From Candidatus Margulisiibacteriota bacterium (lineage in GTDB: Bacteria > Margulisbacteria > WOR-1 > O2-12-FULL-45-9), in contig JAYEOW010000029.1 of NCBI GenBank assembly GCA_034723395.1, positions 4,737 to 68,736 of the forward strand: DNA of 64,000 bases, in the 5' to 3' direction. Below the pieces are notes generated by a model. It made no database searches and was not told the origin of the DNA. It saw only the letters and a list, made by a program, of their open reading frames with translations. Position numbers and translations under genes: made by a program. Below, in pieces: positions 4,389 to 25,778 of the stretch (positions within the stretch are counted from its first letter, which is position 1; the number at the start of each line of letters is the position of its first letter).

Positions 4389-4392
4389 TTTA

Positions 4393-4638
4393 TTACTTCT
4401 TTGCGTGAGACATGATATAGGTTACCGTGTCCCCGATGGTTTTTATCTTTTCCGCGTCTTCATCCGGGATCTCGGTGCTAAAAGCCTCTTCCAGCGCCAT
4501 TACTAACTCAACTGTATCCAGCGAGTCAGCTCCCAGGTCGTCGACAAAAGAGGCTTCTCTCTTGGCCTCGGCCTCTGAAACTCCAAGCTGTTCAACTACA
4601 ACCTTTTTAACCTGTTCATAAACTTGATTCTCATCCAT
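4393..4638 (-). CDS. acpP: Acyl carrier protein
   Basis: [18 protein letters not shown] phosphopantetheine-attachment motif. Start chosen at ATG 4636-4638, preceded by SD GGGGGTG; the ORF track's longer GTG start (4647) is less likely. Confidence 0.9.
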
Positions 4639-4656
4639 TAAATTCACCCCCTTTTT

Positions 4657-4695
4657 TAATTATTAATTGATTAATTTGATTAATTGTTAATTGTC
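4657..4695. repeat. AT-rich iterated TAATTG/CAATTAACAAT element between fabG stop and acpP RBS
   Basis: Sequence taattattaattgattaatttgattaattgttaattgtc. On the minus strand it reads acaattaacaattaa..., shared with 39077-39118. Confidence 0.5.
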
Positions 4696-5427: not shown

Positions 5428-5429
5428 GT

Positions 5430-6311: not shown

Positions 6312-6315
6312 GGTA

Positions 6316-8312: not shown

Positions 8313-9472
8313 TTCTTTTTCTTAATGTTTTCCTTGATAAGTTTTAGGGCGATTTCGTTTCTTTGTATTTGGTTGGTCCCTTCGTAGATCTGGGTGATCT
8401 TGGCGTCCCGCATCATTTTCTCAACCGGGTATTCGCGCATATATCCGTAACCGCCAAGGATTTGAACAGCATCGGTGGTGACCTTCATAGCTGTGTCTGA
8501 TGCAAAAAGCTTTGACATGGAGGAATATAAAGTATAATCCTTCGATTTGGCATCGATCATTCTTGCTGTGGCATAGACCAGGGATCGAGCTGCTTCCAAC
8601 CGGGTCGCCATGTCCGCTAAAATATGCTGGACGGCCTGAAAAGAAATGATCGGTTTTCCAAATTGTACGCGCTGGCGGGCATAACTGACTGCCTCATCAA
8701 TCGCTCCCTGGGCAATTCCGAGCGCTTGTGCCCCGATTCCCGGACGGGTTATATCGAGGGTTTTCATGGCGACGATAAATCCCATCCCTTCGCGGGCGAG
8801 CAACTGGCTTTTATGTACCTTACAATCCTGGAAAACAAGTTCGCGGGTCGCGGAACAGCGGATCCCCATCTTTTTCTCTTTTTTGGCGAAGGTAAAGCCA
8901 GGGGTCCCTTTTTCGATGATAAAGGCCGACGCCCCGCGGCTCCCCTTGTTTTTATTGGTCATGGCGATCAATGTGTAAACCTCGGCCTCTCCGCCGTTGG
9001 TGATCCATTGCTTGGTCCCGTTTATGACATAGTAATCGCCGTCCTTAACCGCGGTAGTTTCTACCCCGGCGGCGTCTGATCCGGCATTTGCTTCGGTAAG
9101 TCCGAAAGCTGCCAGTTTCTTGCCGGCGGCAATATCGGGCATATATTTTAATTTCTGTTCGTGAGAGCCGAAAAGCAGGATTGGGGCGGATCCGAGGGCG
9201 GAGGCGGCAAAGGTGACGCCTACTCCTCCGCAGGCGCGGCTGATTTCTTCGGTAGCCAGGCAGAAATTAAATATTTTCTGGCCCATTCCGCCGTACTCTT
9301 CCGGGATGTAGAGGCCGCAGAGATCGGCGTCGGCTAAAGCTTTAATTATATCCCAAGGGAACTCTTCTTTTTCGTCCAGTTCCGCGCGTACCGGAACAAT
9401 CTTTTCAACCGCGACCTTACGTGCCAGCTCCCTGATCATCTGTTCTTCTTCAGTTAGCATGTAATCGAGCAT
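8309..9472 (-). CDS. Acyl-CoA dehydrogenase (short-chain/butyryl-CoA dehydrogenase-like)
   Basis: 387 aa with three-domain ACAD layout and C-terminal motifs QILGGYGYMREYPVEKMMRDAKITQIYEGTNQIQR. Confidence 0.85.
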   Translation of the reverse strand: MLDYMLTEEEQMIRELARKVAVEKIVPVRAELDEKEEFPWDIIKALADADLCGLYIPEEYGGMGQKIFNFCLATEEISRACGGVGVTFAASALGSAPILLFGSHEQKLKYMPDIAAGKKLAAFGLTEANAGSDAAGVETTAVKDGDYYVINGTKQWITNGGEAEVYTLIAMTNKNKGSRGASAFIIEKGTPGFTFAKKEKKMGIRCSATRELVFQDCKVHKSQLLAREGMGFIVAMKTLDITRPGIGAQALGIAQGAIDEAVSYARQRVQFGKPIISFQAVQHILADMATRLEAARSLVYATARMIDAKSKDYTLYSSMSKLFASDTAMKVTTDAVQILGGYGYMREYPVEKMMRDAKITQIYEGTNQIQRNEIALKLIKENIKKKK

Positions 9473-9475
9473 TTT

Positions 9476-10444
9476 TTATCCTTCCCACCTAATAATATTG
9501 GCTCCGCAGGTCAGGCCGGCGCCAAACCCGGAAAGGGCCACAACATTGCCCTTTTTTATCTTACCATCAGACAATGCTTCATCCAGTGCCAGGGGGATCG
9601 AAGCGGCCGAGGTATTACCGTATCTGTGAAGATTAACATAAACTTTTTCTTTTGGCAATCCCATTTTCTTGCTAACATGGTCAATAATCCGCGAGTTTGC
9701 CTGGTGGGGGATTAGCAGGTCGATATCGCTTACTTTTAAGTTTGCTTTCTCAAGCGCTCCGTACAGGGACTCCTCTAATACCCTTACCGCAAACTTAAAA
9801 ACTTCTTTACCGTCCATGGTTATAAAACGGCCATTCTGGTTTTCCGGATCGCGCGAGCCTCCTCCCGGCATGACCAAATGATGTCCGAGATGTCCCTCTG
9901 CTTTTAGCCAGCTGGCCAGAACCCCGGATCCGTCATCTTTTGCTGTTAATACTGTCGCTCCCGCGCCATCTCCAAACAGGATGCAGGTCCCACGATCTTT
10001 CCAGTTAAGGTACTTTGTTAGCGTATCTGCGCCGACCACCAGTATGTTTTTATAATTGCCGTTTTCAATAAAGGTTGATCCGACAGTTAGGGCGTAATTA
10101 AATCCCGAACAAGCGGCAGACACATCGAATGCCGCCGCTTTGGTTGCTTTTAAGCGGTTTTGAAGGATACAACCAACGGAGGGAAAGAGATAGTCAGGAG
10201 AAGTTGTTCCGACAATAATCAGGTCGAGCTCTTCGGCCGGGAAATTCGCCTTTTGCAGCGCTCTTTCAGCGGCGATAAAGGCAAGATCCGAAGTTGATGT
10301 CCCGTAGTCCGAAATCCTTCTTTCCTGGATCCCGGTACGGGTCCGTATCCAATCATCGGACGTTTCGACTATTTTACCGAGATCATCATTGTTTATAACC
10401 TTTGGCGGGGCACAGGAGCCGACGCCGATTATTGAAGCCCTCAT
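9476..10444 (-). CDS. fabH: 3-oxoacyl-ACP synthase III
   Basis: 322 aa with the FabH architecture and active-site region AAFDVSAACSGF. Confidence 0.9.
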   Translation of the reverse strand: MRASIIGVGSCAPPKVINNDDLGKIVETSDDWIRTRTGIQERRISDYGTSTSDLAFIAAERALQKANFPAEELDLIIVGTTSPDYLFPSVGCILQNRLKATKAAAFDVSAACSGFNYALTVGSTFIENGNYKNILVVGADTLTKYLNWKDRGTCILFGDGAGATVLTAKDDGSGVLASWLKAEGHLGHHLVMPGGGSRDPENQNGRFITMDGKEVFKFAVRVLEESLYGALEKANLKVSDIDLLIPHQANSRIIDHVSKKMGLPKEKVYVNLHRYGNTSAASIPLALDEALSDGKIKKGNVVALSGFGAGLTCGANIIRWEG

Positions 10445-11433
10445 AAACTTTCGCCTACTTTCGATATCGCGCCAACCATGTTGTTTTCGACCGCTTCAAA
10501 AGATTCGCGGATCGCGTTCTTGATCGCCCGCGCTTTGGAGCGGCCATGAGCCTTGTAAACTACAGCCGATATGCCGAGCAGTGGAGCGCCGCCGTATTCA
10601 TCGTAGGTGATTTTCTTTCGAAGCCTAAGGAGCGCCGGTAAAAGGAGGGCTAACCCGACCTTATTTAGAATTCCCCTGGAAAGCTCTCCCTTAAGAAGGT
10701 TAAATATCACCCCGGCAATACTTTCGCCAAATTTTAAGATCAAGTTGCCGACAAATCCGTCGCAGACGATGACATCCGCTTTGCCGTTAAATATTTCTTT
10801 GGACTCGACGTTACCGATAAAATTAAGAGGCAATTTTTCGAGCAGCAGCCAGGTTTCGCGGGTAAGCTCGTTCCCTTTTTCTTTTTCCTCGCCGATATTC
10901 AAAAGCCCGACCTCCGGGCTTTTGATATGCAGAACATGCTGGGCGTACAGACTTCCCATCATGGCAAACTGTTCCAGGTGTTTTGGCTTGCAATCGACAT
11001 TTGCCCCCATGTCCAGGAGGAGGACCTTTCCGGAGGGGAGAGGGAATTCGGTAGCAATGGCGGGACGTTCGATCCCTTTTATTCTTCCGAGCTTAAAAAG
11101 GGAGGCGGCCATCAGGGCGCCTGTGCTTCCCGCAGAAACGACCGCGTCCGCCTTTCCTTCTTTTACCAGCGATACGGCCACATTTACCGATGCCCCCTTC
11201 TTTTGTTTGACTGCCTGGGCGGGAGCCTCGTCCATATCGATCACTTCGGTGGAGTTTACAATGCCAAGCTTTTCCTTGTCTTTGTAGCAAGAAAGCTCTT
11301 TTTCAACGCGGGATTGGTTTCCGACTAAAATAATTTCGGCGTCCGGGAGCTCACGGCTGGCAAGGACGGCGCCTTTAATAATCTCGGAAGGAGCGTGGTC
11401 CCCCCCCATTGCATCGAGGGCGATCCTAGTCAT
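10441..11433 (-). CDS. plsX: Phosphate acyltransferase
   Basis: MTRIALDAMGGDHAP N-terminus; conserved rpmF-plsX-fabH synteny. Confidence 0.9.
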   Translation of the reverse strand: MTRIALDAMGGDHAPSEIIKGAVLASRELPDAEIILVGNQSRVEKELSCYKDKEKLGIVNSTEVIDMDEAPAQAVKQKKGASVNVAVSLVKEGKADAVVSAGSTGALMAASLFKLGRIKGIERPAIATEFPLPSGKVLLLDMGANVDCKPKHLEQFAMMGSLYAQHVLHIKSPEVGLLNIGEEKEKGNELTRETWLLLEKLPLNFIGNVESKEIFNGKADVIVCDGFVGNLILKFGESIAGVIFNLLKGELSRGILNKVGLALLLPALLRLRKKITYDEYGGAPLLGISAVVYKAHGRSKARAIKNAIRESFEAVENNMVGAISKVGESL

Positions 11434-11640
11434 TTATTCTTTTCCCTTCTTGCCTTTTTTCTCTTTTTTATTTTTTATGGTACGGCCTTTGTAGGTGCCG
11501 CAGGAGGGGCAGGCGTGGTGGGGGAGAGAGGGCGCGCCGCATTGCGGGCACTTCCCGTGAAGGGTTGCGGAAAGGCGATAATTACTGGACCGTCGCTTCC
11601 CCTGTCTAACATTTGAATGTCTTTTTTTGGGCATTGGCAT
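11434..11640 (-). CDS. rpmF: 50S ribosomal protein L32
   Basis: 68 aa. MPMPKKRHSNVRQGKRR with a CxxC...CxxC zinc ribbon. Confidence 0.85.
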   Translation of the reverse strand: MPMPKKRHSNVRQGKRRSSNYRLSATLHGKCPQCGAPSLPHHACPSCGTYKGRTIKNKKEKKGKKGKE

Positions 11641-11643
11641 GGT

Positions 11644-12102
11644 TTATTTTTCTCCTTTAATTCCTTTGCAGTCCGGGCTGCACAAAGTTTTTATTGGTAT
11701 CGATAATAAAAGGTCCTGCCGGATCATTTCACTAAGATCGATCGTATTGTCTTCTTCGATCGGGTAGACAAAATCCTCCGGACGGAGCTCCGTGCTCCCG
11801 CTGCTTTTCGAGATGAAAGGCTCTTTGGAAAATTCCTCTTCCAGATCGATCGCAAGCGGGACCTTATATTTTTTCAGGCATCTTGAGCATTCAAGCTCGG
11901 CTTCGGTTTCGGCAGTGCCGGTTAGATAGACCGAATCCCCGACATTTACCAGATGAAGCTGGACCTTGACCGGTTTTGAAAGGTTGAGATCGTCATCGGG
12001 GAAACTGATTTTGTCAGTTTCTTCGATATCCACCTCGTTCCCAGCCTTTTGCAAGACTTCCGTAAGGTCAATTTTCATCCTTAAAGCCTTTCGGGACAAC
12101 AA
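11644..12102 (-). CDS. DUF177/YceD-family protein (23S rRNA accumulation protein)
   Basis: 152 aa, acidic, C-terminal CSRC...CSPDC pair; in the conserved position upstream of rpmF. Confidence 0.65.
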   Translation of the reverse strand: MLSRKALRMKIDLTEVLQKAGNEVDIEETDKISFPDDDLNLSKPVKVQLHLVNVGDSVYLTGTAETEAELECSRCLKKYKVPLAIDLEEEFSKEPFISKSSGSTELRPEDFVYPIEEDNTIDLSEMIRQDLLLSIPIKTLCSPDCKGIKGEK

Positions 12103-13534: not shown

Positions 13535-14725
13535 ATGGAGAAACGACATCTTTTTACATCAGAATCGGTTACCGAAGGGCATCCCGATAAAGTTTGCGAC
13601 CAGGTTTCGGACGCCATCTTAGACGCGATCGTCGAGAAGGACCCCCCCGGACGCGTTGCGGTTGAAACGTTAGTTACCAATGGATTAGCAATTGTGGCAG
13701 GGGAAGTTACTACCGGTTGTTATGTTGATATCCCCAAAATAGTTAGAAAAACGATCAAAGATATCGGATATACCCGCGCTAAGTACGGGTTCGATTATGA
13801 AACCTGCGGAGTGATGGTGGCAATTAAGGAACAGTCCAAAGATATTGCCCGCGGGGTGGATAAGGCGCTGGAGATCAGGGGTGGAGAAGTAATAAAAGAA
13901 GACCTGGAGGGACTAGGCGCTGGAGACCAGGGACTAATGTTTGGTTATGCCTGTGATGAGACAGAAGAGTTGATGCCGCTTCCGATCGTTCTGTCGCATA
14001 AGCTTTCACAGAAATTAGCCGATGTACGAAAGACCGGCGAATTAGATTACTTAAGGCCGGACGGAAAATCCCAGGTAACAATTGAATACGATAAAGACAA
14101 ACCGATCAGGGTCCACACTGCGCTAATCGCCGCACAGCATTCACCCGAAGTAAAAATGGACAGGATAAGGGAAGATATTTTGGAAAGAGTGATCCTGCCG
14201 ATCCTTCCTGAAGAAATGGTCGATGATAAGATCAAGCATTATGTAAATCCTACCGGCCGGTTTGTGATCGGCGGACCGCAGGGGGATAGCGGGGTGACCG
14301 GCAGAAAAATTATTGTCGATACTTATGGCGGATACTCCCGTCACGGCGGCGGAGCTTTTTCCGGCAAGGACCCGACAAAAGTTGACCGTTCCGGGACTTA
14401 TGCGGCGCGCTGGGTCGCTAAAAATATTGTTGCATCCGGATTAGCTAAACGCTGTGAAGTTCAGCTTGCTTATGCGATCGGGATTGCCCGGCCGCTATCG
14501 ATCATGGTCGATACTTTTGGGTCGGGAAAGATCGCGGACGGCAAGATCGCAAAATTGGTAGATGAAATATTTGATCTCCGTCCGGGAATGATCATCAAAG
14601 AGCTTGACCTTAGGCGTCCGCTCTATTTGCAGGTTGCTGCTTATGGGCATTTTGGCAGGCTCGACCTGGACCTTCCTTGGGAGAATACCGATAAGGCTAA
14701 AGAGCTAAAGAAAAAAGCTAGTTAA
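13535..14725 (+). CDS. metK: S-adenosylmethionine synthetase
   Basis: N-terminus [22 protein letters not shown] and motif [16 protein letters not shown]. Confidence 0.95.
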
Positions 14726-17399
14726 GCAGGTATCTTTGTCCGTAGATCGCGCGGCCACCGCTGGCGTAGTCTTCCCAAAAAACATAAAAGCTGCCGCCCG
14801 ATTCGCTGGCGATAATTTTGGGGTTTCTGCCGCCATTAACAGTATTTATTTTTATCCCATTTTCATCCCAGATCGACTGTCCGACACTGTCTAGTTTTTG
14901 AACATAAAGCTCGTAATTTTTTCCGCTTCGATAGTCTTCCCAGATAATTAATACGTTTTCATCGTTTAATTTAACCACCTGCGGAGAATATTGTGTATGC
15001 GGGATAAGGGCGACCGGTATTCCTTTCGGGTTCCAGGATAACTTCCCGGACAGATCGATCGCGCCGGCAAAAATATCCCAATTCCCATATCGATAATCTT
15101 CCCAGACCAACACATTCGAATTTCCAAATTTAGCGTTCTGTTGGGTTCGGCCCGACTGGTTTATCGGGATCCCATCCTTCATCCAGACCGGCTGGCCCCC
15201 TTTATTTACCCTTTGCGCGTAAATATCGTAGCTCCCACCGCCGCGATCGGTCCAGGCGATCATGGCTCCACCATTGCCGTCCGATATTATTTTCGGCCGC
15301 CGCTGTACGTCCGGAGCGCCGCAGACGATTGCTCCATCTTCCTGCCAGAGAGGGGCCCCTTTACTGTTTACCCTTTGCGCGTAAATGTCCGGATTCCGGT
15401 CGCCGCGCCGATAATCGGTCCAGGCGAGAATTGCTCCGCCGGACCCGTCAGAGATCATATCTGCGTCAATTTGGTTTCCATTGGCTGAAATGATGGCTTT
15501 TCCCTGGCTGCCCCATAAAAGTTTTCCTTTGGGACTTACTCTTTGAGCGTAGACATCCTGCAGACTTAAAACATTCCGGTTGTCCTGCCAGGCGATGATC
15601 GTTCCGCCGGCATCGTCGGAGACCATTAGCGGATTTGTCTGGTGGACCGGAACCTTGGATAACGGCAGGCTGCTCGCCCAAACTTTTTTCCCGCTTCGGT
15701 TGATCCTTTGGGCGCGGATCATCGGGAACTGTTTGATGCGGTAGTCTTCCCAGGAGATAATCGCTCCCCCTTTCCCGTCCGACACTATCCGGGGGGACAA
15801 TTGATTGGCCGCGACTTTGGCGATCGCGGTCCCGTGCTGTCCCCAGGCTAGCTTCCCGGCGGGAGTGATCTTTTGTGCATAAATATTAAAAAATCCTGAC
15901 CGGGCGTCTTCGAAAACCAGAATGATCTCGCCGTATTCGGTAAAGATGAGGCTCAGGTTTTGCTGGATGACCGATCCAATGGCCGACCCGATTATGTTCC
16001 CGTTTTTACCCCAGAGCAGTTCCCCGGCGGGAGTAAGTTTTTGGGCGTGAATGTCATAGTTTCCACTCCTTTTATCTTCCCAGGCGATAATTACGTTTCC
16101 CGATGGGGAGGCGACCAGGGAGGGGGATTCCTGCGATTGGGTCGTGGAGGCCAGGGGGATGCCGTTGGTGTGCCAGATGGGGATTCCCGAACTGTTGATT
16201 TTTTGGGCGAAGAGATCGGACCTTCCTTTTCTTGAATCTTCCCAAATCACAACCCAGTCTTGGCTGTTTAGTTTTACGATTTCTGGATTTTTTTGGGTGC
16301 CGTTCGCTATGGTGACCGGCCGGCCGTTTTCCTGCCAAGCGGTCTTTCCGTCGTGGTAGATCCGCTGGGCATAGATATCGCTTTTTTCCGCGCGGTGGTC
16401 GGTCCAGATAACGATCGCTCCCCCGGCGCCATCCTTTGACAATCTCGGGTTCTCCTGCGCGAAGGGGAGTTTGCAGGCGGCTATACCATCTTTATTCCAG
16501 AGCAATTTTCCTTTGAGATCGATCTTTTGAAGGTAGATATCAAAGTTCCCGGAGCGGGCGTCATTCCAGGCGAGAATAGCCCCATTTTCTGCCGACATAA
16601 TAACCGGACGCTCTTGGTTCCCGGGAGAAAGGGAGACCGCTTTTCCCTCTTTTTCCCAAAGCAGGTTGCCCAAGGCGTCGATCCTCTGCGCGTAAATATT
16701 ATTGTCCGAAGCGCTGGTCCTTCCGTCGGTCCAGACGATGATCGCGCCGCCGGACCCATCACCGGTTATCTTGGGATACCACTGAGTTCCGCTGCTGATC
16801 GATACCGCGACCCCGTCTTTTTGCCACAACGGGTTTCCCTTGCTATCAATCCTCTGCGCGAAGATGTCTTCACCTTTCCTTCCGCGGTAATCGTGCCAAG
16901 TAATGATCGCACCGCCGTGCCCGTCGGAGGTGATCTCCGGAGCGAACTGTCCAGCCGCCGCCTGGCAGATCGGGATCCCGTCCCTTCCCCAAAGCGGGGA
17001 GCCGTTGCTGCTTATTTTCTGGGCAAAGATGTCGGAATTCCCATTGCGGTAGTCTTGCCACACGACGACCACCCCGTTTAACCCATCGGTAATCAATTGC
17101 GGGAAGTTTTGATTGCCCGCAGATTTTCCGGCGGCAATTCCGTGTTTAGCCCAAAGCGGAACACCAGCCCGGTCGATCTTCTGAAGGTAAACGTTATAGT
17201 AACCGGACCGTCCATCTTCCCAGGCGAGAAAGTAGCCGTTACTCCCGTTACTGATTATTTTTGGGTTTTGCTGCGGGCTATTCCCCGGGGTATCGTTAAC
17301 GATGAGCCCATAAGTTGACCAGGCCGCTTTGGGGGTTTCCTGTGCGTAGGTTGGCGGGACCAAAAGGAGGCAGCATATTAAAATTGATAAAAATCTCAT
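14718..17399 (-). CDS. Secreted tandem-repeat protein (about 15 x ~58 aa), predicted beta-propeller-like
   Basis: Signal peptide [19 protein letters not shown]. Repeat consensus ...W..[DN]G..V......Q..P.I.SDG.GGAII.W.D.R.G..DI[YF]AQ[RK]I.. Confidence 0.7.
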
Positions 17400-19675
17400 T
17401 AAGCAGCCTCGGCGAGCTTCATTGAAATCACTTTCGATACTCCTGGTTCCTCCATGGTAATTCCATAGATGTTATTTGCAACCGCCATGGTGCGTTTGTT
17501 ATGGGTGATCATAATGATCTGGCTCTGTGCGGAAAAATCTCTGACGATATCGGCAAAGCGCCCGATATTCGCGTCATCCAGTGCCGCATCGACTTCATCT
17601 AAAAAGCAGAAAGGACTGGGACGGATCTTAAGCAGCGAGAAAAGTACCGCGATTGCCGATAAAGCCCTTTCTCCTCCGGACAAAATATGCAGCGGGAGCC
17701 ATTTTCGGCCAGAAGGCTTGACCGAGATCTCGATATCAGACTCAAGCGCGGATGTTCCCGGCGACAGCGTGATTTTTGCTTCTCCTCCGACAAAAAGTTT
17801 GGCAAAGGTTTCTGAAAATACTCCGGAAAGTTTTTCCATTGTTTCCAGGAAGGTCTGTTCGGCTTTGATGTCAAGCTCAATGATCAAGCTGCGCAGGTTA
17901 TCGCGCGCTGAGTTCAGGTCGGTAAGCTGAGTTTCGATGAAATTTAGCCGTTCTCTTTCTTTTTCAAATTCTTCAATGGCTAAAAGGTTGACTGGTTCAA
18001 GCGCGCGCAGTTTCTGTTTTCCCGATTCGACCTCACTTTTGGTTTTAGATATGTTTGTCGCTTTTTGGGGGAGGGTGGCGGCTTCTTCCAGGCTAAGGTT
18101 ATATTCGAGGGATAGCTTTTCCCGGATGCCATTTAGTTCGCCCTCAAGTTTCGCTAGAGAGATCGCGAGTGCGTTCTCTTCGTCTATGCTCTTTCTCTCG
18201 GATTGGCTGTCTTCCCGGATCTTTTCTTCTAGAACAGCGATCTTTTGCGAAAGACCTTCCTTTACCTGTTTTTTCTGGACCAGCATCGATGGGGTGGTTT
18301 GGACGGCCTTTGCGTCGCCAATCTTTGAATTTAAGTTTTCCAGTTGTGTCCGGTGGGCCTGAAGGGCAAAACAGACCCGTTCTTTTTCTTTTTCGTTCCT
18401 TTTTTTCTCTTCCTCGAACATTTCGAGCCGCATTTTATAAGCCTCTTCTTTTTCGGCGTTATCTCCAAGATCGAGGGAGAAAGGTTTTGCTTTGCCGAAA
18501 AAGGAGAAGATAGAAGAGAGTTTGCTTACCAGGTTCGAGGCCTGATCTAAAACGGTTTCCAAAGACGATGATAGGGGGGTTGAAGAAAGATCGAGCTTTT
18601 TCATCCCCTCTTTCAGCTTTACCCGGGCAAGTTCGACCTTCTCTTTTATCTCCCTGGATTTTTCTTCAAGTTCGGACAGTATTCGCTCCTCGCGTTTTAC
18701 TTCACCATCGGTAAAGCGGCAATCGAGCTCAATATCGCGTACTTTATCCTTATCTTCTTCGAGTTTGATCAGGATATCGTCGATCTCGATTTCTAATTTG
18801 CGGTGTTCATCTTTTAAAACCTTTAGTTCTTCAAAATCTTTTTCTTCGGCCTGTTTCTTTGTCTGTGACTGCTGTTTTACCCGGTCGAGCTCGGACATTA
18901 GCCGGTCTTTCTTCTCATTTATATTTTCGATCATCCGATTGCACAGTCCGATGTCCAGATCTTTGATCTGGGATTGGATCTCAAGATATTCGCGCGCTTT
19001 GCGGGCCTGCTCTTCCAGGGTGATGATGTGTTCACCGACTTCTATCTTTAGGTCATTAATGCGCAGGATATTCTGTTCGGCGGCGATCAGCTTTTTCTCC
19101 GCCGAATATTTTCTGAACTTATACTTGTTGATCCCTGCCGCCTCTTCGAAGACTGCCCGGCGTTCCCCCCCCTTGCTGGAGAGGATCGCGTCTACCTGGC
19201 CCTGGGTGATGATCGAATAGGTCCCTTCCCCTAATCCGGTATCAAGCAGCAGGTCGCGGATATCTTTTAAACGGCACTGGTTTTTATTAATAAAAAATTC
19301 GCTCTCGCCCTCACGGAAAGTGCGGCGCTTGATGGCGACCTCTTCAAAAGCGAGAGGCAGTTTTCCGGAGGAGTTATCAAAAACTAAGGTGACTTCGGCC
19401 AGGGAGAGGGCTCTTTTAGCGGTGGTTCCGGTAAAGATAATATCGGCTAAGCTGGCGACCCTTAGATCGCGCGGATTATTTTCTCCCAATACCCAGCGGG
19501 TAGCGTCCAAAAGATTGCTTTTCCCGCATCCATTAGGCCCGACGATCGCGGTAATGCGCGCATTTTCGGTAAATTCGACCTCGACTGGATCGGCAAAGGT
19601 CTTAAAACCCCGCAAGATAAGAGATTTTAAAAACATCTTATAATGTAATATAGCAAAAAAAAGCCTATTCATCAA
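17399..19675 (-). CDS. SMC-family ATPase, short form without a recognisable hinge domain
   Basis: N-terminal Walker A (GPNGCGKSN) and C-terminal signature/Walker B (LSGGERALSAIAVLFSLL...FLDEVDAALD) separated by only ~420 aa of coiled coil. The true start is probably MFLKSL at 19636. Confidence 0.7.
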   Translation of the reverse strand: MMNRLFFAILHYKMFLKSLILRGFKTFADPVEVEFTENARITAIVGPNGCGKSNLLDATRWVLGENNPRDLRVASLADIIFTGTTAKRALSLAEVTLVFDNSSGKLPLAFEEVAIKRRTFREGESEFFINKNQCRLKDIRDLLLDTGLGEGTYSIITQGQVDAILSSKGGERRAVFEEAAGINKYKFRKYSAEKKLIAAEQNILRINDLKIEVGEHIITLEEQARKAREYLEIQSQIKDLDIGLCNRMIENINEKKDRLMSELDRVKQQSQTKKQAEEKDFEELKVLKDEHRKLEIEIDDILIKLEEDKDKVRDIELDCRFTDGEVKREERILSELEEKSREIKEKVELARVKLKEGMKKLDLSSTPLSSSLETVLDQASNLVSKLSSIFSFFGKAKPFSLDLGDNAEKEEAYKMRLEMFEEEKKRNEKEKERVCFALQAHRTQLENLNSKIGDAKAVQTTPSMLVQKKQVKEGLSQKIAVLEEKIREDSQSERKSIDEENALAISLAKLEGELNGIREKLSLEYNLSLEEAATLPQKATNISKTKSEVESGKQKLRALEPVNLLAIEEFEKERERLNFIETQLTDLNSARDNLRSLIIELDIKAEQTFLETMEKLSGVFSETFAKLFVGGEAKITLSPGTSALESDIEISVKPSGRKWLPLHILSGGERALSAIAVLFSLLKIRPSPFCFLDEVDAALDDANIGRFADIVRDFSAQSQIIMITHNKRTMAVANNIYGITMEEPGVSKVISMKLAEAA

Positions 19676-19721
19676 CTAAGCTATTTGCAACTTGAAGCCG
19701 GTGTGTTAAAATGATCGAAAA

Positions 19722-20969
19722 ATGAGAAGAAATTTTACTCTTTTACTCCTAATTCTTTTATTTGCCTCAACAGTTGTTGCAGGGATATTTATTTATGAAC
19801 CAAAGGACAAGCTTATTACTTTTAATGAAGTAGAAATGCTTAAAGGCGTCGGTAAAAACCTGGATATACTAAAAATTAACGATCAGAAGATAGGATTTAG
19901 TGCCAACGGTAATTTTAGCTGCGGACTGATCCTTTCGCGCGGAAAGAATCTGGTTGAGATAAGAGCGCTGGATAAAAATGGAGAGCATTTCACAAAAGAG
20001 GTGCGTATCCTAAGCTTAAAAAATTATCCGGACATCGAAACCCTTTACGACGGGAAAAAACATTGGGCCAGGACACAGATCATTTACCTTTCGACCATCG
20101 GCGTGATCGAAGGGTATCCCGATGGTGGTTTTTACCCGGGGAATCCGATCACCCGCGGAGAGTTGGCGACCTGGATCGCGCGGGCGAAGAAGTTGAGCGT
20201 AGCAAAGCTTGGCGGAGATCCGTTTTTTGATGTTCCAAAAGAGCGTTGGCGAGCACCATATATCAAGGCGGTGGTGGATGCCGGCTTTATGCGCGGCTAT
20301 GATAATGACACATTTGGGATTGATGAGCCAATATCCAGGCGTCAGGTGGCCGAAGTCGCCGTTTTAACCGAGGGGTATGAGGCGGTTGAGCGGATAAAAC
20401 CGATCTTTGTCGACGTTCCCAAAGAAGAACAGGGCGCATTCCCAATCTATGTTGCGCGGGAAAAAGGTTTGGTATTGGGAGTATCAAAAGATATCGACGT
20501 TTTTGAGCCGGACCGGGCGTTGACCCGGGCGGAAGCGGCCGCGCTGATTTCGAGATTTAAGATCTCTGCTGAACGGATAAAATATCTATTTAGCTTTGAA
20601 AAAGGTTTTGATAATGGCCGGCGCTGCAAAGTAAATCTTCCGCCAAAAATATTATCATTTTCGGTCGGGCCGGGTGAACTTAAAGCAAATAAACAAAACG
20701 TTGTAAAAGTCAGGGTTAAGATTGCCGATCGCGAAAATTTCTTCCCGATATCCAAGGTAAAGGTCGATCTTTCCGAAATTGGCGGGGCGCCGGACGCAGA
20801 GATGTTCGATAATGCTTCGCATGGGGACGAGAAGAAGGGGGATATGGTCTACTCCCTAAATCTTTCCCTCGAGCCGATAGAGAGCGGCAGTAAAAGCCTA
20901 ATGGTTACAGCAATCGATCGGTTGGGATGGGAGAGCAGAAAAGAGGCATTCCTGCTCGTAATAGAATAA
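19722..20969 (+). CDS. Secreted protein with three SLH domains and a C-terminal Ig-like domain
   Basis: Signal/TM N-terminus. Three SLH-like segments (…HWARTQIIYLSTIGVIEGYPDGGFYPGNPITRGELATWIARA, FFDVPKERW…, FVDVPKEEQ…). Confidence 0.7.
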   Translation: MRRNFTLLLLILLFASTVVAGIFIYEPKDKLITFNEVEMLKGVGKNLDILKINDQKIGFSANGNFSCGLILSRGKNLVEIRALDKNGEHFTKEVRILSLKNYPDIETLYDGKKHWARTQIIYLSTIGVIEGYPDGGFYPGNPITRGELATWIARAKKLSVAKLGGDPFFDVPKERWRAPYIKAVVDAGFMRGYDNDTFGIDEPISRRQVAEVAVLTEGYEAVERIKPIFVDVPKEEQGAFPIYVAREKGLVLGVSKDIDVFEPDRALTRAEAAALISRFKISAERIKYLFSFEKGFDNGRRCKVNLPPKILSFSVGPGELKANKQNVVKVRVKIADRENFFPISKVKVDLSEIGGAPDAEMFDNASHGDEKKGDMVYSLNLSLEPIESGSKSLMVTAIDRLGWESRKEAFLLVIE

Positions 20970-20973
20970 TTTA

Positions 20974-22635
20974 ATGAAAAAGTTTTTAATATTATTAATA
21001 GGCTTATCGGTTATCGTATCTCCGTCTTTTGCGGAATTAAAAGAGCTTGGAATTAATCCGCTGCGCTTAGAATTGGGGAGCAGACCGTTGGGGATGGGTG
21101 GGGCATTTACCGCGATCAGCGACGTGAACTCGGTGCTTTATAACCCGGGCGGCCTGGCTTGGGCAAAGGGAGTTTCGCTAACTTATCAGGACCCGCAGAA
21201 TCTCTCATTTTTACAGGCTTACCCCAATGGGGAGGGATCGTCTGCCGGCTTGGCTATCCTAAAGAAAACTTACTCCGGGATCCCTTTCCAAATAGGGGAG
21301 GCAAATTCAGGGAGCACGATCGTCTTACTATCTTATGGGACAAAACTAAACGCAATCCCGCGGCTCTACAAAAATCCTTTCTTTAAAAGATTCGGCATTG
21401 GCATAACGTTAAAAGGGCTGGTAGGGCAGACCCTAAGGCGGACGGGGTATTTTGACCGTTCGGCGACTGGATGGGATATCGATCTTGGCGTGATCTGGAA
21501 GGGTGGAGAGTGGTGGTCGGCCGGGGCAGCTCTGCATAATATATTACCGATAAATACTTTGGGCGGCGGAGCGGTGATCTGGGATGTGGGAGGGGAAGAG
21601 GGGATCCCGGCCTCTTTTAGATTTGGCAGTTCAGCAAAAATTATCGGTGACCTTGATGCTCCGATCTTTATGGAGGATCGAGAACTTATACTAAGCGGAG
21701 AGATCGATTTTTCGCGCATTAGAACGAGTCAGCTTAAATTAGGGGGAGAATGGTATTTCCAAAAACGGTTCTATCTCCGCAGCGGGATTGTAGCCGGGGA
21801 TGAAACCGATATTAACCTGGGAGCCGGTTTTAGGCGGGAAGATTGGGGGATTGACCTGGCATATTATCGGGAGCCGATTAAGAACGAAAGATACATCTCG
21901 GCCTCGCTCTCCTATTATCCAAAGGAGTGGGTGGTCCTTAAAAAATTAGATATCGCAAAACCAACCGTCATGCTTGAAAGGCCGATCGAAGAGCTTTCTT
22001 TAGAAGACAACATTGTAACTTATGATGACCGGATCGAAATTAACGGCCGCGTAAAACCGGGGGTAAAAGTTTACATCAATGGGCTCCCCGCATCACTAGA
22101 CAAGAATAACGCGTTTAAAGTCGTGGTTCCCCTCCGATTAAAGAAAAATTTAATTATTGTTGAGGCGCGCTACGAAGGGGAGAGGAAGGTCTGGAAATAT
22201 AAAGTTTTTAGAAAAGCTAAGATAAAGGTGTTGGAAGAAGAGCAATTAAAGAAAAAATTAAAAGAAGCAAAGAGCGCAAAAGAAAAGGCGGCGCTAGAGG
22301 CTAAAGAAAAAGAGATAGCAAGGAAGAAAAATAGGGTTGAATCATTTGTTACCATGGGAGTGATAGAAATTACCCCCGAGTCCGAATTTGTAATGGAGGC
22401 TCAAATTACAAGGGGAGAACTTGCCACCTGGTTAGTGAGGGCGGCGGGGATGAGAATTCCCGAAGTAAAAAGGGATCTCTATAAAGATGTGCCCAAAGAC
22501 CATCCGCTTGCCCCATATATTAAAGCGGTTACCGATATGAAGTTGCTGCAGCCGTTCCCGGATGGGACCTTCCGGCCGGGAGCATTTGTCTCCAAACAAG
22601 AGGGCGAAGAGATATTTAAGCGTTTTGGCAGATAA
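20974..22635 (+). CDS. Outer-membrane beta-barrel protein (FadL/OmpP1-like N-terminal motif) with C-terminal coiled coil and SLH domain
   Basis: Signal peptide, then LGSRPLGMGGAFTAISDVNSVLYNPGGLA (compare FadL sGlGrAysGeaaiAdDas...NPA). Alternating beta-strand-like segments, a K/E-rich coiled coil and an SLH-like C-terminus (ITRGELATWLVRAAG...YKDVPKDHPLAPYIKAVTD). Confidence 0.6.
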   Translation: MKKFLILLIGLSVIVSPSFAELKELGINPLRLELGSRPLGMGGAFTAISDVNSVLYNPGGLAWAKGVSLTYQDPQNLSFLQAYPNGEGSSAGLAILKKTYSGIPFQIGEANSGSTIVLLSYGTKLNAIPRLYKNPFFKRFGIGITLKGLVGQTLRRTGYFDRSATGWDIDLGVIWKGGEWWSAGAALHNILPINTLGGGAVIWDVGGEEGIPASFRFGSSAKIIGDLDAPIFMEDRELILSGEIDFSRIRTSQLKLGGEWYFQKRFYLRSGIVAGDETDINLGAGFRREDWGIDLAYYREPIKNERYISASLSYYPKEWVVLKKLDIAKPTVMLERPIEELSLEDNIVTYDDRIEINGRVKPGVKVYINGLPASLDKNNAFKVVVPLRLKKNLIIVEARYEGERKVWKYKVFRKAKIKVLEEEQLKKKLKEAKSAKEKAALEAKEKEIARKKNRVESFVTMGVIEITPESEFVMEAQITRGELATWLVRAAGMRIPEVKRDLYKDVPKDHPLAPYIKAVTDMKLLQPFPDGTFRPGAFVSKQEGEEIFKRFGR

Positions 22636-22636
22636 G

Positions 22637-23512
22637 ATGAAAATAGGACTATTAATACTATTAATGATAATGAATATATTGCCGGCGGCGGTTTCTGCGC
22701 AAAAAACCGTGGAGGCAGAGGGAGAAGCTTTGACCAAGGGGGAAGCGGTGATGCTCCTTTCGGCAACCGATTTTATGCGTAAAAAGATCGCTGACCTATT
22801 CTCGTGGACGATCGGTTATGATATTTCAAAACTTAGCCGGGTTAAACTTACTCCGAGCATAAATTATGTTAGAGTGGTCCCGCGTAAAATTCCTCCAGAC
22901 GGTAGAACTGTATTTGAAATCGTTGCCTCGGTTGATGATCCCGGCGGGCTTGGGAATGTTGCCGGAGTAAGGGCGGATCTAAGCTCGATCGGTCGGCTGC
23001 CGAACATGATGCTGGTAGATAACGGGCTTTTTGGCGATGAAAAAGCAGAAGATGGGATCTATACACTGCAGTCAAGTATCCCGATCGATATCGAGATTGG
23101 GAAAAAAGAGGTGCAGGTTGCGGTTGCCAATAAAAAGGGATGGCTTGCTTTGGCGAAAACAAGCATAGACATCAAGAAGAACCCGACTATAGCTGTGGCC
23201 AGGTTTACTCCAGACCGTGTAAAAGCAGATGGGTGGGATAACGTAATTTTAACCGTCAAGATCGATAATCCGGGTAGAAGCGAGGATCTTAGGGGGGTAA
23301 CCGCGGACCTGCGCGCGTTCGGGTATGGTAAACTTCTTTTGTTAAGGGACGACGGAAAAGGGGGAGATCTGGTGGCGAGGGACGATGTATACAGCTTAAA
23401 GTTCATCGTCCCGAGAGGGATCAAGCCGGGAGAGTATCCAATAAGGATCGGCGCCTCGAATCTGGCGTCGGGGTACGTTGCGGCCGATATTTTGTTGAAG
23501 GTATATAATTAA
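22637..23512 (+). CDS. Secreted protein with two Ig-like repeats (shared with the C-terminus of the 19722 gene)
   Basis: Start ATG 22637 (the ORF-track start 22562 overlaps the upstream gene). Signal peptide MKIGLLILLMIMNILPAAVSA. Repeated motif V.ADL...G......DDG.GGD..A.D.VYSL. Confidence 0.6.
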   Translation: MKIGLLILLMIMNILPAAVSAQKTVEAEGEALTKGEAVMLLSATDFMRKKIADLFSWTIGYDISKLSRVKLTPSINYVRVVPRKIPPDGRTVFEIVASVDDPGGLGNVAGVRADLSSIGRLPNMMLVDNGLFGDEKAEDGIYTLQSSIPIDIEIGKKEVQVAVANKKGWLALAKTSIDIKKNPTIAVARFTPDRVKADGWDNVILTVKIDNPGRSEDLRGVTADLRAFGYGKLLLLRDDGKGGDLVARDDVYSLKFIVPRGIKPGEYPIRIGASNLASGYVAADILLKVYN

Positions 23513-25716
23513 TGTTAACGACCTTGACCATTATAAGTGTTTTTATGGAGATCTTTGCCGCCGGCATATTAGCGGCTGGCGCGGTCACTTTCCTGAAAGA
23601 TTTTATATCCTTAAAAAAATTAAAGGACCTGGCTTTTAGCCTGGTCTTCCTCTCGCTTTTTGTCTACGTTGCCAGCACGATCGCTTCGCAAATGATGTTT
23701 AACTTCGGACGTCCGTTGTCCGAACTGATCCTGGTGCACAAAACAATCTCGACCAGCATCTTGCTTTCGGTCCTTTTTGTCTGGGGATTTATTGTCGAAC
23801 GCTTTGAGCTGAAAAAAGTCCGGTTAAGTTATCCGCTGGTCTTGCTGATGGTCGCTTTTTTTATTTACCAGGTTTACGGGGCCAACCTTAACCTGGTTTA
23901 TCGCGCGGGGGTCATTGAGCCGATCGTAAGTTTTTCGCTCTGGGTCCCGGTAACTCGCCTTTTTAGCCTGTCATGGATAATCCTGGCGACCTTTTCGTTC
24001 ATTAATGCGTTTAGGAATAGTGGGGGGAAGAGGGTGTTGGCGATTTTCCTGGGCGCCTCCTCGGTGATTATGCTTGCGGCTCTTTTTTGTTCTTTCTTGT
24101 ATCTCCAGTTAGGTGCGGCGGAGTACTTATTGATCTCGTGGATATTGATATTGATATCCAGCCTTGGTTTTCTTCTATCCGAGGTCATTCCCGTGGATTC
24201 GGAGGACGCTAAACGCCCGCTCCACTTTTTCAGGACGAGAGTGCTTTTTAAGTTGATTTTGATCTTTGTTCTTTTAATCGTGATCCTTTTTGAGACCACA
24301 ACTCTGGCGACCATTAACATTAGTAAGAGCGCGCTCTCCAAAGCGATCATTAATAGCTATCAAAGAGTGGCGCAAGAGCTCGCTCTGGAGGTAGAGTCTT
24401 TTCCGGAAACGCCGGATATTGAGCAGCTCCAACAGTTTGTTTCCCAGGTGAAAATCGATGGAAAAGGGATGGCTTTTATCATTGATAGCAGCGGGAAATT
24501 AGTCGCGCACCCCGACAAAAAAAGGGCGATCCAGAGGGAGCGTATGGTCGAGAATGGGGCGGTTAAAAGGTTGCTGGCGAACCGGAGTGGCGGGGGAGAA
24601 TATAAGGACGAGTTTGGGGATATGATGGTTGGCGCTTACGAGCCGATCCGGAAATTTGGGTGGGGAGTTGTCGTCCAGGAACCGATCGGATCAGCATATT
24701 ATGATCTTCGCCACCTCGAGACAAATTCGCTTCTTTTTGTGATCATTGGGATAATCATGACCTCGCTTGTGGGAATCTTTTTTGCCCGTTCAATTGAACG
24801 GCCGATCAAGGGCCTAACCGAGGGGACTGATGCGGTCGCCAAGGGGGACCTCAAGAGGCAGGTGACGGTCGATTCGGTGGATGAGATTGGGCGGCTCTCG
24901 GTTGCTTTTAACAAGATGACGCAGGATTTGCGTGACAGCCAGGAACGGTTAATCCTTTCGGAAAAGCTTGCCTCGCTAGGAACGATGGCGGCCGGGATGG
25001 CACATGAAATAAAGAATCCTCTGGTGTCGGTGCGCACCTTTACCCAGCTGCTTCAACTAAAATGGGAAGATAAAGCGTTCCGCGAAAAATTTTCCAGGAT
25101 TGTTCCTCAAGAGATCGAGCGGATAAACCGGATTGCCGAAAGCTTGCTGAAATTTGGCCGGCCAAGCAAGCCGGAGCTGACCAAGGCAGACATAAATGCG
25201 CTGTTGGATGAGGTCTTACTTTTATTTGAGAGTGAGTGCAAAAAAAATAATGTTAGAGTGACAAAAAAACTGGCTGAGCTCCCAACGGTTCCCGGCGACC
25301 CGGGGCAGCTGCAGCAGGTCTTTGTGAATTTGATAAAAAATGCAATTGAGGCAATGTCGGAAAAGGGCGGCGAATTGACCATAAAAACAGATATCGGCGA
25401 AGTAATGAAGTTGGGAAAGATGAACCGTCAAGGAAAGATCAAGGATGGGCAGGTTGTTTGGGGGGAGGAAGAAGACCTGGGAAAACCGCTGCCGGTAGTC
25501 TTTGTTGAAATAACTGATACGGGTGAAGGGATCCCTGAAGAAAATATCAAGAGCTTGTTTGATCCGTTCTTTACTACAAAAATGACGGGGACAGGCATGG
25601 GACTGCCGATCACGCTACGGATTATTGAAGAGCATAAAGGTTCTTTAAAAGTTAGAAGTCAACCGGAGAAGGGGACCACATTTTTACTTACTTTACCTCA
25701 GAAGCTTAGTTCTTAA
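23512..25716 (+). CDS. Sensor histidine kinase (7TM N-terminal region, Cache-like, HAMP, HisKA, HATPase_c)
   Basis: Multi-TM N-terminus, HAMP segment (SIERPIKGLTEGTDAVAKGDL), H-box LGTMAAGMAHEIKNPL and G1/G2 boxes. TAATG overlap with the upstream gene. Confidence 0.85.
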   Translation: MLTTLTIISVFMEIFAAGILAAGAVTFLKDFISLKKLKDLAFSLVFLSLFVYVASTIASQMMFNFGRPLSELILVHKTISTSILLSVLFVWGFIVERFELKKVRLSYPLVLLMVAFFIYQVYGANLNLVYRAGVIEPIVSFSLWVPVTRLFSLSWIILATFSFINAFRNSGGKRVLAIFLGASSVIMLAALFCSFLYLQLGAAEYLLISWILILISSLGFLLSEVIPVDSEDAKRPLHFFRTRVLFKLILIFVLLIVILFETTTLATINISKSALSKAIINSYQRVAQELALEVESFPETPDIEQLQQFVSQVKIDGKGMAFIIDSSGKLVAHPDKKRAIQRERMVENGAVKRLLANRSGGGEYKDEFGDMMVGAYEPIRKFGWGVVVQEPIGSAYYDLRHLETNSLLFVIIGIIMTSLVGIFFARSIERPIKGLTEGTDAVAKGDLKRQVTVDSVDEIGRLSVAFNKMTQDLRDSQERLILSEKLASLGTMAAGMAHEIKNPLVSVRTFTQLLQLKWEDKAFREKFSRIVPQEIERINRIAESLLKFGRPSKPELTKADINALLDEVLLLFESECKKNNVRVTKKLAELPTVPGDPGQLQQVFVNLIKNAIEAMSEKGGELTIKTDIGEVMKLGKMNRQGKIKDGQVVWGEEEDLGKPLPVVFVEITDTGEGIPEENIKSLFDPFFTTKMTGTGMGLPITLRIIEEHKGSLKVRSQPEKGTTFLLTLPQKLSS

Positions 25717-25752: not shown

Positions 25753-25778
25753 GCAAAGAAACTTTGCGTAGTTTTCTG
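25753..25778 (+). terminator. Weak candidate intrinsic terminator after the histidine kinase gene
   Basis: gcaaag-aaa-ctttgc hairpin followed by gtagttttctg. Confidence 0.25.

Follow-up and report, generated by a model that had tools for sequence, protein, structure and literature searches.

Current views of envelope evolution, and of the change from two membranes to one, hinge on the way in which diderm Terrabacteria attach their outer membrane to the wall. In the accepted picture the tether is OmpM, in which an SLH domain comes first and a porin follows. A locus of the Margulisiibacteriota, the sister group of Cyanobacteria, suggests a further arrangement, with a different class of barrel and the opposite order. 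The original prediction for this locus, which lies in a 64,000-nucleotide stretch of DNA (the window), read one gene, here called B, as a beta-barrel followed by a coiled coil and a C-terminal SLH domain, and proposed that its product is an alternative tether between outer membrane and wall or a wall-anchored transporter.

Organization of the A-B-C-kinase cluster

Four open reading frames are real, all on the + strand: gene A (415 aa), gene B (20974..22635, 553 aa), gene C (291 aa) and a kinase gene. The intergenic gaps are 4 nt (A-B), 1 nt (B-C) and -1 nt (C-kinase); at the last of these junctions, stop and start overlap as TAATG at 23510-23514. The start of C was placed at the ATG after the B stop (22637); an alternative, longer frame from 22562 would overlap B. 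The features are as follows.

19684..19712, + strand: promoter-like site just 5′ of A (TTTGCA/TTGCAA, 16/17 nt, TAAAAT with TG extension; consensus scan)
19722..20969, + strand: gene A, with signal peptide, Ig domain (residues 24-96), three SLH domains (about 102-280), cap LFSFEKGF and C-terminal Ig domain (about 300-415)
20974..21162, + strand: B signal peptide (residues 1-20, ...SFA|EL) and N-terminal plug or hatch (21-63) (motif, model, HMM)
21163..21915, + strand: predicted 14-strand outer-membrane beta-barrel of B (residues 64-314), final strand ending ...SLSYY (AF2, Foldseek, profiles)
21985..22212, + strand: predicted periplasmic Ig-like beta-sandwich of B (residues 338-413; AF2 strands, pLDDT 81-88)
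22213..22335, + strand: E/K-rich alpha-helical spacer of B (residues 414-454, 41 residues; AF2 helices 420-431 and 435-460)
22336..22635, + strand: C-terminal SLH module of B, about 1.8 repeats (residues 455-553; Pfam, alignments, conservation)
22637..23512, + strand: gene C, with signal peptide, N-terminal helix and cap (residues 30-62) and choice-of-anchor-X Ig domains (about 70-180 and 181-291)
23512..25716, + strand: sensor histidine kinase, with about seven N-terminal membrane segments, Cache, HAMP, HisKA and HATPase_c domains (Pfam, hydropathy scan)
25753..25767, + strand: terminator-like hairpin with T-rich tail, 37 nt 3′ of the kinase stop (consensus scan)

The promoter-like site and the hairpin are weak indications, because neither the region overall in the first case nor the hairpin in the second is enriched over shuffled sequence. 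The gene order A-B-C-kinase, together with flanking SMC-like, ClpC and RadA genes, is kept at 57%, 51% and 36% identity. Orthologs of A lie immediately upstream of B in the compared loci L001-L004, and the kinase gene occupies the equivalent position in L001, L002 and L004. Closely packed and syntenic across Margulisiibacteriota/Saganbacteria/WOR-1, the cluster is a core feature of Margulisiibacteriota/Saganbacteria that is inherited vertically.

The last gene had been described as a 7TM-Cache histidine kinase coupled to C through the TAATG junction, and this description holds: its Pfam domains are dCache, HAMP, HisKA and HATPase_c, and about seven hydrophobic N-terminal segments precede the membrane-helix pair that flanks the Cache domain. 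The co-transcribed kinase probably senses or regulates the A-B-C envelope module.

The three SLH domains expected in A were recovered, both with Pfam (E 1.8e-24) and as three matches to the family HMM (residues 127-147, 166-207 and 228-279), and A thus carries a triple domain in one chain. Its N-terminal Ig domain belongs to the Glucodextran_B type (Pfam E 3.4e-8). Its C-terminal Ig domain is of the choice-of-anchor-X type, with a score of only 13.1 bits against the NCBIfam profile (cut-off 25), for which C contains two copies (NF041940; E 1e-11, 44.3 bits). A and C are related over residues 266-403 and 31-169, respectively (BLAST, 32% identity, E 3e-19). An Ig module had been assigned to all three genes. 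This module (DDG..GD..DGVYS) occurs once in A and twice in C and is restricted to these two proteins; B and C share no similarity (best E 0.46), and NF041940 finds no match in B. The A protein is probably secreted and wall-bound, with its full triple SLH domain flanked by two Ig domains.

A predicted plugged barrel with a periplasmic tail

The N-terminus of B combines a signal peptide with a plug motif of the FadL/PorV type (G.RPLGMGGAF....D....YNPGGLA), much as predicted. Among 53 homologs, D50 and N57 of the plug are invariant and R37, L39, G42, P58 and G60 nearly so; the YNPGG hatch motif, with P58 and G60 each conserved at ≥90%, is comparable to the NPA motif of FadL. The AF2 model (pLDDT 85 overall) has a confidently modelled plug of about 43 residues (pLDDT 87-96) and 14 barrel strands, mostly above pLDDT 90, in keeping with the predicted beta-barrel. 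Apart from a single long loop at 189-213, most loops of the barrel span 2-5 residues.

Several searches place this barrel close to PorV, a FadL-superfamily protein of Bacteroidota. The NCBIfam PorV/PorQ profile (NF033709) matches residues 29-309 of B over profile positions 6-321 of 326 (E 1.6e-16), with 60.8 bits against a curated cut-off of 90. Foldseek with the B model returns PorV first (E 3.8e-10), followed by FadL and TodX, and a PDB profile search also finds PorV (E 2.2e-8). Pfam Toluene_X (PF03349), a search proposed at the outset, gives no match to B at E ≤ 0.1. The B barrel is therefore nearer to PorV/PorQ than to FadL proper, and shares with PorV/PorQ the plugged 14-strand barrel of the FadL superfamily. 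By its inferred localization B is an integral outer-membrane protein. Because a 14-strand barrel places both chain ends in the periplasm, the tail of B should reach the wall.

This tail begins with a 23-residue linker of low model confidence, followed by an Ig domain of the same Glucodextran_B type as that at the N-terminus of A; paralogs match Pfam Glucodextran_B at the equivalent position, and residues 28-208 of A align with the tail of the B ortholog in L002. The next segment had been called a K/E-rich coiled coil. Family spacers are 46-76% charged with little sequence conservation; for the K/E-rich helix itself the charged share is 50-76%, and in the best heptad register only 17-36% of a/d positions are strongly hydrophobic. 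Lacking a clear heptad core, the B helix is best regarded as a charged spacer rather than a demonstrable coiled coil. Spacer lengths across the family are discrete (21 or 41 residues, with 84 and 112 in divergent members).

The SLH-like C-terminus is well supported, with Pfam SLH (PF00395) matching residues 503-543 at 37.3 bits (cut-off 20.8) and a PDB profile search matching the region to the SLH domains of OmpM and SlpA. The module consists of one full repeat preceded by the latter half of another, which carries R480 of the TRGE motif. R480, D505 and F533 are invariant, and T479, G481, E482, W486 and Y515 are nearly invariant. It is 40% identical to residues 125-212 of A, the sole A segment aligned, and aligns in register with SLH1-SLH2 of SbsB, whereas only 105 residues align with the triple SLH domain of SpaA. 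B ends directly after the second SLH core helix, and the C-termini of all homologs but one fall within 3 residues of the same position. Known SLH modules have a three-fold build, with either three repeats per chain or a trimer of single repeats. With only about 1.8 repeats, unlike A, the competence of B alone for wall binding is uncertain.

Comparison with known systems and possible roles of B

The predicted inverted order of barrel, helix and SLH domain is kept in more than 100 homologs of B, and the SLH domain lies C-terminal to the barrel in 81 of 105 full-length barrel relatives. Seven tails of non-SLH relatives were read, and these carry a different conserved end domain behind a spacer that is Pro/Lys-rich or a very long helix. 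Judged from these sequences, the tail of B appears to behave as a spacer with an exchangeable anchor. At least two further classes of paralogs in the phylum likewise combine a PorV-like barrel with a periplasmic tail. The type-2 paralogs are barrel-Ig-3xSLH proteins that score 83-99 bits with the PorV family profile (cut-off 90), and their Ig-3xSLH tail aligns with residues 22-296 of A (E 1e-28 to 1e-32). The other class has a barrel, an Ig domain, a spacer and a novel end domain.

The obvious comparison is with the OmpM/Slp/SlpA-type SLH porins of diderm Terrabacteria, exemplified by Veillonella OmpM1 (8BYM), Deinococcus SlpA (7ZGX) and the cyanobacterial SLH-OprB porins. OmpM has an N-terminal SLH domain, a stable triple coiled coil and a 16-strand porin (PMC10628300). 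Like OmpM, B is a single chain in which a barrel is combined with an extended helical spacer in the periplasm and with a wall-binding SLH module, and by analogy its expected role would be that of a non-covalent tether between outer membrane and wall. However, the order is reversed in B, with the barrel (64-314) first and the SLH module (455-553) last. Moreover, its barrel has 14 strands rather than the 16 of general porin trimers, its spacer has no clear heptad core in place of the triple coiled coil, and it has about 1.8 SLH repeats plus an Ig domain rather than one repeat per chain.

A C-terminal position of the SLH domain is also known from the trimeric autotransporters of Negativicutes (bioRxiv 10.64898/2026.01.22.700529), whose adhesins, with their C-terminal periplasmic coiled coil and SLH domain, share with B the order of barrel, short helical segment and periplasmic SLH domain. 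Those adhesins have 12-strand trimeric autotransporter anchors and a large surface passenger, whereas B has a single-chain 14-strand barrel, no passenger and an extra Ig domain. The B-type tail would be a so far undescribed way to tie the outer membrane to the wall, although the principle itself has precedents.

On the strength of sequence and model, we assign a probability of about 0.62 to B being a wall-anchored PorV-like outer-membrane protein that serves as a tether of fixed length. The tail would hang from the barrel into the periplasm, the Ig domain and helix might set a barrel-to-wall distance of roughly 10 nm, and the SLH module would bind a pyruvylated wall polymer or peptidoglycan non-covalently. 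B would then work as OmpM does, with a different class of barrel, a reversed order and a spacer helix that is probably monomeric in place of the trimeric coiled coil. The proposal of an alternative tether is supported by the barrel model, the significant SLH matches and the conserved domain order. B may nonetheless be dispensable for tethering, as other proteins of the same genomes are listed as OmpM, and a transport or docking role of the barrel may matter more. In a published survey of outer-membrane tethers, B orthologs were entered as SLH proteins only and not as OmpM, while other proteins of the genomes that carry them were entered as OmpM, and CsaB was also present. As to the wall ligand of the tail, CsaB is encoded by related WOR-1/Saganbacteria genomes (supplement, 10.1101/2021.05.31.446380). 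Among the 30 window ORFs scanned with Pfam, neither CsaB nor OmpM was matched. Related genomes carry separately listed OmpM and CsaB, which makes B one more SLH-anchored protein of the outer membrane rather than the only tether.

The close match to PorV invites another explanation. PorV holds or shuttles proteins with C-terminal sorting domains of the T9SS at the outer membrane, and B might likewise be a docking or sorting protein for partners such as A and/or C, with an SLH tail that merely immobilizes the docking site on the wall. PorV/PorQ (LptO) of the Bacteroidota T9SS (PDB 6H3I chain F, 8GL6 chain F) provides the closest match to the B barrel in both sequence and structure, although PorV lacks SLH repeats and any tail in the periplasm. 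Ig-like domains form the C-terminal end of both A and C, and type-2 paralogs adjoin proteins with T9SS sorting domains in four independent loci. Yet we consider docking rather unlikely as the primary role. B remains below the PorV family cut-off (60.8 versus 90 bits), sorting-domain HMMs find no match in A or C, and T9SS core genes are seen neither among the window ORFs scanned nor in the flanks of the compared loci. In addition, the host lies outside the Bacteroidota/FCB group, to which the T9SS is regarded as limited. Also, because most loops in the model are so short, with one exception, the barrel would offer little surface for cargo binding. Docking is, moreover, compatible with tethering.

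Less probable still is a wall-anchored FadL-type channel that would import hydrophobic compounds via a lateral opening while also tethering, comparable to the porin-plus-tether OmpM. The plug of about 43 residues with its conserved NPG, resembling FadL NPA, is what would be expected of such a channel. However, the lack of a Toluene_X match and the absence of fatty-acid or aromatic-degradation genes from the operon and its conserved flanks speak against it. Members of the FadL/TodX family also differ from B in having much longer surface loops and no periplasmic SLH tail. FadL-like BamG subunits have reportedly been seen recently in BAM complexes of Bacteroidota, but a role for B as such an accessory subunit of the barrel-assembly machinery is highly improbable: the scores reflect the shared FadL fold alone, bamA and other BAM genes are absent near the operon in every locus compared, and nothing connects SLH tails with BAM.

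Gene C and implications for the phylum

The incomplete SLH module of B might find its complement in C. Residues 30-62 of C form a highly conserved helix and cap, LTKGEAVMLLSATDFMRKKIADLFSWTIGYD, which are homologous to the final SLH helix of A and the cap behind it. Mature C would begin with the third core helix and the cap; in A, the type-2 paralogs and the proteins P0106 and P0107 this cap follows SLH3, and the SLH core helices and cap all lie within one chain. This segment is the densest run of invariant residues in C, yet it is modelled at pLDDT 35-58 in the monomer. The 327 homologs of C have locus tags adjoining those of B orthologs and are confined to B-type operons. C is presumably a secreted double-Ig protein. 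Its N-terminal helix is what remains of an SLH domain and probably binds a partner protein, for which the incomplete SLH module of B is the most plausible candidate.

We offer only as a tentative extension, which may well prove wrong, that B and C form a split SLH module, with C hooked non-covalently onto the tether and the tail of B together with C recreating the architecture of A, and that the envelope of the phylum is built on a modular family of PorV-like barrels, each with a ruler in the periplasm and an end domain that can be exchanged, with one branch coupled to T9SS-type sorting-domain proteins outside Bacteroidota. At the four loci mentioned above, the type-2 paralogs lie immediately 3′ of Ig-repeat proteins whose C-terminus is a T9SS type A sorting domain (TIGR04183, 23.3-27.0 bits, cut-off 23); at one of these (L006), the paralog is on the window's own 150.8-kb contig. 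This link raises the question of whether PorV-like sorting occurs outside Bacteroidota. The spacer classes of 21 and 41 residues amount to a natural experiment on whether the width of the periplasm is set by the tail.

Because a survey for SLH domains with predicted barrels did not enter B-type proteins as OmpM, the tethering systems of uncultured phyla may have been undercounted. Our findings suggest that the sister phylum of Cyanobacteria also has a conserved, vertically inherited family that joins a PorV/FadL barrel to SLH repeats, in the opposite order.

Gene order and domain structure of protein B

Four open reading frames, A, B, C and a sensor kinase, occupy positions 19722..25716 on one strand throughout. 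The gaps between them are 4 nt (A to B) and 1 nt (B to C), and C and the kinase share a TAATG stop/start overlap. A longer ORF for C, starting at 22562, overlaps B. Protein B is 100% identical to MEA3493589.1, which is encoded on a 150.8 kb contig of a Candidatus Margulisiibacteriota MAG and is annotated there as 'S-layer homology domain-containing protein'.

Features of the gene cluster (window positions)
19684..19712, +, promoter-like site from a consensus scan (site class not above shuffled-sequence level)
19722..20969, +, gene A, ORF of 415 aa
20974..22635, +, gene B, ORF of 553 aa
22637..23512, +, gene C, 291 aa, from the ATG one base past the B stop
23512..25716, +, sensor kinase gene, ORF of 734 aa
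25753..25767, +, terminator-like hairpin from a consensus scan (site class not above shuffled-sequence level)

Sequence and structure searches place a barrel of the PorV/FadL type in the N-terminal half of B. Its residues 29-309 cover the NCBIfam PorV/PorQ profile nearly fully (E 1.6e-16), with a score of 60.8 bits that lies below the curated cut-off of 90. A profile built from 53 homologs matched PorV (6H3I chain F, E 2.2e-8) and a Pseudomonas FadL homolog in the PDB, along with the SLH domains of SbsB, Sap, SpaA, OmpM1 and SlpA. The AlphaFold2 model made from the same 53-homolog alignment has a mean pLDDT of 85, and its best Foldseek match is again PorV (E 3.8e-10), with FadL and TodX ranked next. 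The original prediction of a beta-barrel finds agreement in a 14-strand model, and the FadL-type motif that it placed near the N-terminus is real and conserved, with D50 and N57 invariant and P58 and G60 nearly so among the aligned homologs. On what is established for the FadL superfamily, this motif corresponds to its hatch motif. Outer-membrane barrels with 14 strands have both chain ends on the periplasmic side, and the tail of B is therefore expected to be periplasmic.

Domains of protein B in the AlphaFold2 model
Residues 21-63, N-terminal plug
Residues 66-314, barrel of 14 beta-strands, mostly with pLDDT > 90
Linker of 23 residues, poorly defined
Residues 338-413, Ig-like sandwich
Residues 420-431 and 435-460, helices
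SLH region, ending at residue 553

The predicted SLH domain is likewise recovered by Pfam: one repeat spans residues 503-543 with 37.3 bits against a cut-off of 20.8, and no other family exceeds its threshold. The module extends further upstream, in that residues 460-547 share 40% identity with residues 125-212 of A, a stretch comprising the second half of SLH1 and all of SLH2, and are in register with SLH1-SLH2 when aligned to SbsB. These matches indicate that B carries about 1.8 SLH repeats, including the invariant arginine R480 within a TRGE motif. The chain ends 1-3 residues from the second SLH core helix in all B homologs but one, the 675-aa homolog P0065, in which a second module of ~1.8 repeats has been added at the C-terminus.

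The segment between the Ig and SLH domains had been described as a coiled coil, a reading that we dropped after heptad analysis of 53 homologs. Even in the best register, only 17-36% of a/d positions are strongly hydrophobic, and 46-76% of the residues are D, E, K, R or Q. Given this high charge and poor heptad occupancy, the sequence is read as a spacer formed by one charged helix rather than as a demonstrable coiled coil. Its length is 21 or 41 residues among the 53 homologs, except for two divergent members with 84 and 112 residues, and relatives with three SLH repeats lack it.

Proteins A and C and a possible docking of C on B

Protein A consists of a signal peptide, a Glucodextran_B-type Ig domain, three SLH repeats, an 'LFSFEKGF' motif and a C-terminal Ig domain. 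In protein C, a signal peptide and a short N-terminal segment precede two Ig domains with a choice-of-anchor X motif, which scores 44.3 bits in NCBIfam against a cut-off of 25. The only matches of a fold search with C were generic tandem Ig domains, among them those of SiiE and RbmA. An Ig module common to all three genes had been proposed, but pairwise BLAST places the module in A and C only and detects no relationship between B and C, and this proposal was set aside. The match between residues 266-403 of A and 31-169 of C (32% identity, E 3e-19) takes in the final helix of the SLH domain together with the cap motif. Joined end to end, the tail of B and C reproduce the domain order of A.

The N-terminal segment of C, 'LTKGEA....SATDF.KKI..L.SWT.GYD', is one of its best-conserved regions, with F46, K50, L54, S56, W57, G60, Y61 and D62 invariant among 40 homologs. 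In the monomer model it forms a helix with a pLDDT of only 35-58, and both Ig domains exceed 90. This combination of conservation and low monomer pLDDT fits a segment that folds upon a partner. P0106 and P0107 show the SLH module unsplit: these distant relatives have barrel, three full SLH repeats and cap within a single chain, where 'LSRAEAAEILSKTPMVKKKIKELIS' aligns with 'LTKGEAVMLLSATDFMRKKIADLFS' of C. P0106 is a stand-alone gene (5236..6903 of its locus, L009) that lacks an Ig domain and adjoins lepA/hrcA/grpE, and P0107 is similar. Among the loci compared, C homologs are confined to B-type operons, and none lies beside other paralogs. A fused B-C protein was sought among the homologs and none was found; the long homolog P0065 has its duplicated SLH module instead. 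With modest confidence, we suggest that C docks on the incomplete SLH module of B.

Conservation, paralogs and neighboring genes

More than 100 full-length homologs of B (35-72% identity) were found, and those with names are nearly all from Margulisiibacteriota, Saganbacteria or WOR-1; homologs of C number 327. Loci at 51% and 36% identity keep the gene order, from the repeat protein and the SMC-like ATPase through A, B, C and the kinase to ClpC and RadA. In locus L001 (57% identity), the A - B - C - kinase core is present as well, and B and C are neighbors by locus tag in two further genomes. The barrel alone, used as query in an exhaustive HMMER search, yielded 802 relatives and, among the matches listed, 81 of the 105 relatives of at least 450 aa have SLH repeats C-terminal to the barrel.

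Several other genes of the window were also noted. An 893-aa secreted protein (14718..17399, minus strand) is built from ~16 repeats in tandem, each roughly 54-55 residues long, with the consensus G..I.W.D.R.G..DIYAQ[KR]I...G..LW and no Pfam family at its cut-off, and orthologs of 910-917 aa keep its position in two related loci (L002 and L004). The start of its gene overlaps by one base the stop of an SMC_N-type ATPase gene (17399..19675, minus strand), which is transcribed away from the A-B-C-kinase operon, with < 90 bp between the two. This ATPase has only ~745-790 aa here and in relatives; canonical SMC proteins are longer. Elsewhere, a sigma-54 gene is followed by two consecutive sigma-54-dependent response-regulator activators (48113..52563, minus strand), and a long one-strand block (2191..11433, minus strand) holds plsX, fabH, fabD, fabG, fabK-like and fabF as well as an acyl-CoA dehydrogenase and a ferredoxin-fused EtfAB pair.

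Two more paralog classes occur within the same phylum as B. Type-2 proteins, of about 635 aa, comprise barrel, Ig domain, three SLH repeats and cap, and NCBI often names them 'PorV/PorQ family protein'. One of them, P0190, is encoded on the window's own 150.8-kb contig, outside the window (L006 is a 38-kb Logan copy). At four independent loci (L005, L006 at 7594..11944, L007 and L008), type-2 genes lie directly downstream of genes for large Ig-repeat proteins with He_PIG/TIG/Cadherin/Big repeats, whose C-terminus is a T9SS type A sorting domain; the TIGR04183 scores are 23.3-27.0 bits, with a cut-off of 23. This context is a hint that PorV-like sorting may occur in a phylum not known to have type IX secretion. 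Type-3 proteins have two Ig domains, a Pro/Lys-rich or very long helical spacer and no SLH repeats. Their conserved C-terminal domain of ~70 residues (motif 'LPGYFAVYVL..QYIALR') has no Pfam match in P0238, P0239, P0244, P0245, P0247, P0250 and P0256. One of these, P0244 (OGC06948.1), shares a WOR-1 contig with a B ortholog. A spacer of variable length and an exchangeable end domain would be expected of an anchor that spans the periplasm.

Comparison with known tethers and possible roles

OmpM is a trimer whose C-terminal 16-strand porin is joined by a triple coiled coil to an N-terminal SLH domain (PMC10628300). B differs from it in domain order and barrel class, and probably in its stalk as well. 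B is not a member of the OmpM family, although it is predicted to work like one. A survey of tethering systems, in which OmpM was defined as 'SLH domain plus predicted beta-barrel', tabulates the B orthologs OGC25747.1 and OGC06882.1 among SLH proteins only, lists other proteins of the same genomes as OmpM (OGC24325.1; OGC06466.1, OGC07454.1 and OGC08661.1), and also lists CsaB for these genomes (10.1101/2021.05.31.446380). Pyruvylation machinery is present in the clade. Within the window, a Pfam search for csaB and an OmpM-type gene found neither among 30 further ORFs, which are housekeeping genes that include fatty-acid synthesis, ETF/acyl-CoA dehydrogenase, a XerC/D-type recombinase, fumarase, malate dehydrogenase, KsgA, PdxA, sigma-54 and its activators, a RelA/SpoT-domain protein and PEP carboxykinase. 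Trimeric autotransporters of Negativicutes offer a precedent for SLH repeats after a barrel (bioRxiv 10.64898/2026.01.22.700529), and no paper in the library searched describes a fusion of PorV or FadL to SLH.

As far as computation can show, these results support the original interpretation of B as an alternative tether or wall-anchored transporter with the order barrel, helix, SLH. The observations behind it were largely correct as to motif, barrel and SLH domain, though not as to the coiled coil or the Ig module in B. The barrel itself might have a PorV-like docking role, or it might serve as a FadL-like channel, and neither role would exclude tethering. Most likely, B is a wall-anchored PorV-like outer-membrane protein that would serve as a tether of fixed length, with A and C as Ig proteins associated with the wall or the tether, and with a dedicated Cache kinase that would accompany all three. 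Because the survey places B orthologs among SLH proteins only and assigns OmpM to other proteins of the same genomes, B-type proteins appear to be an additional and so far unrecognized component of these organisms.
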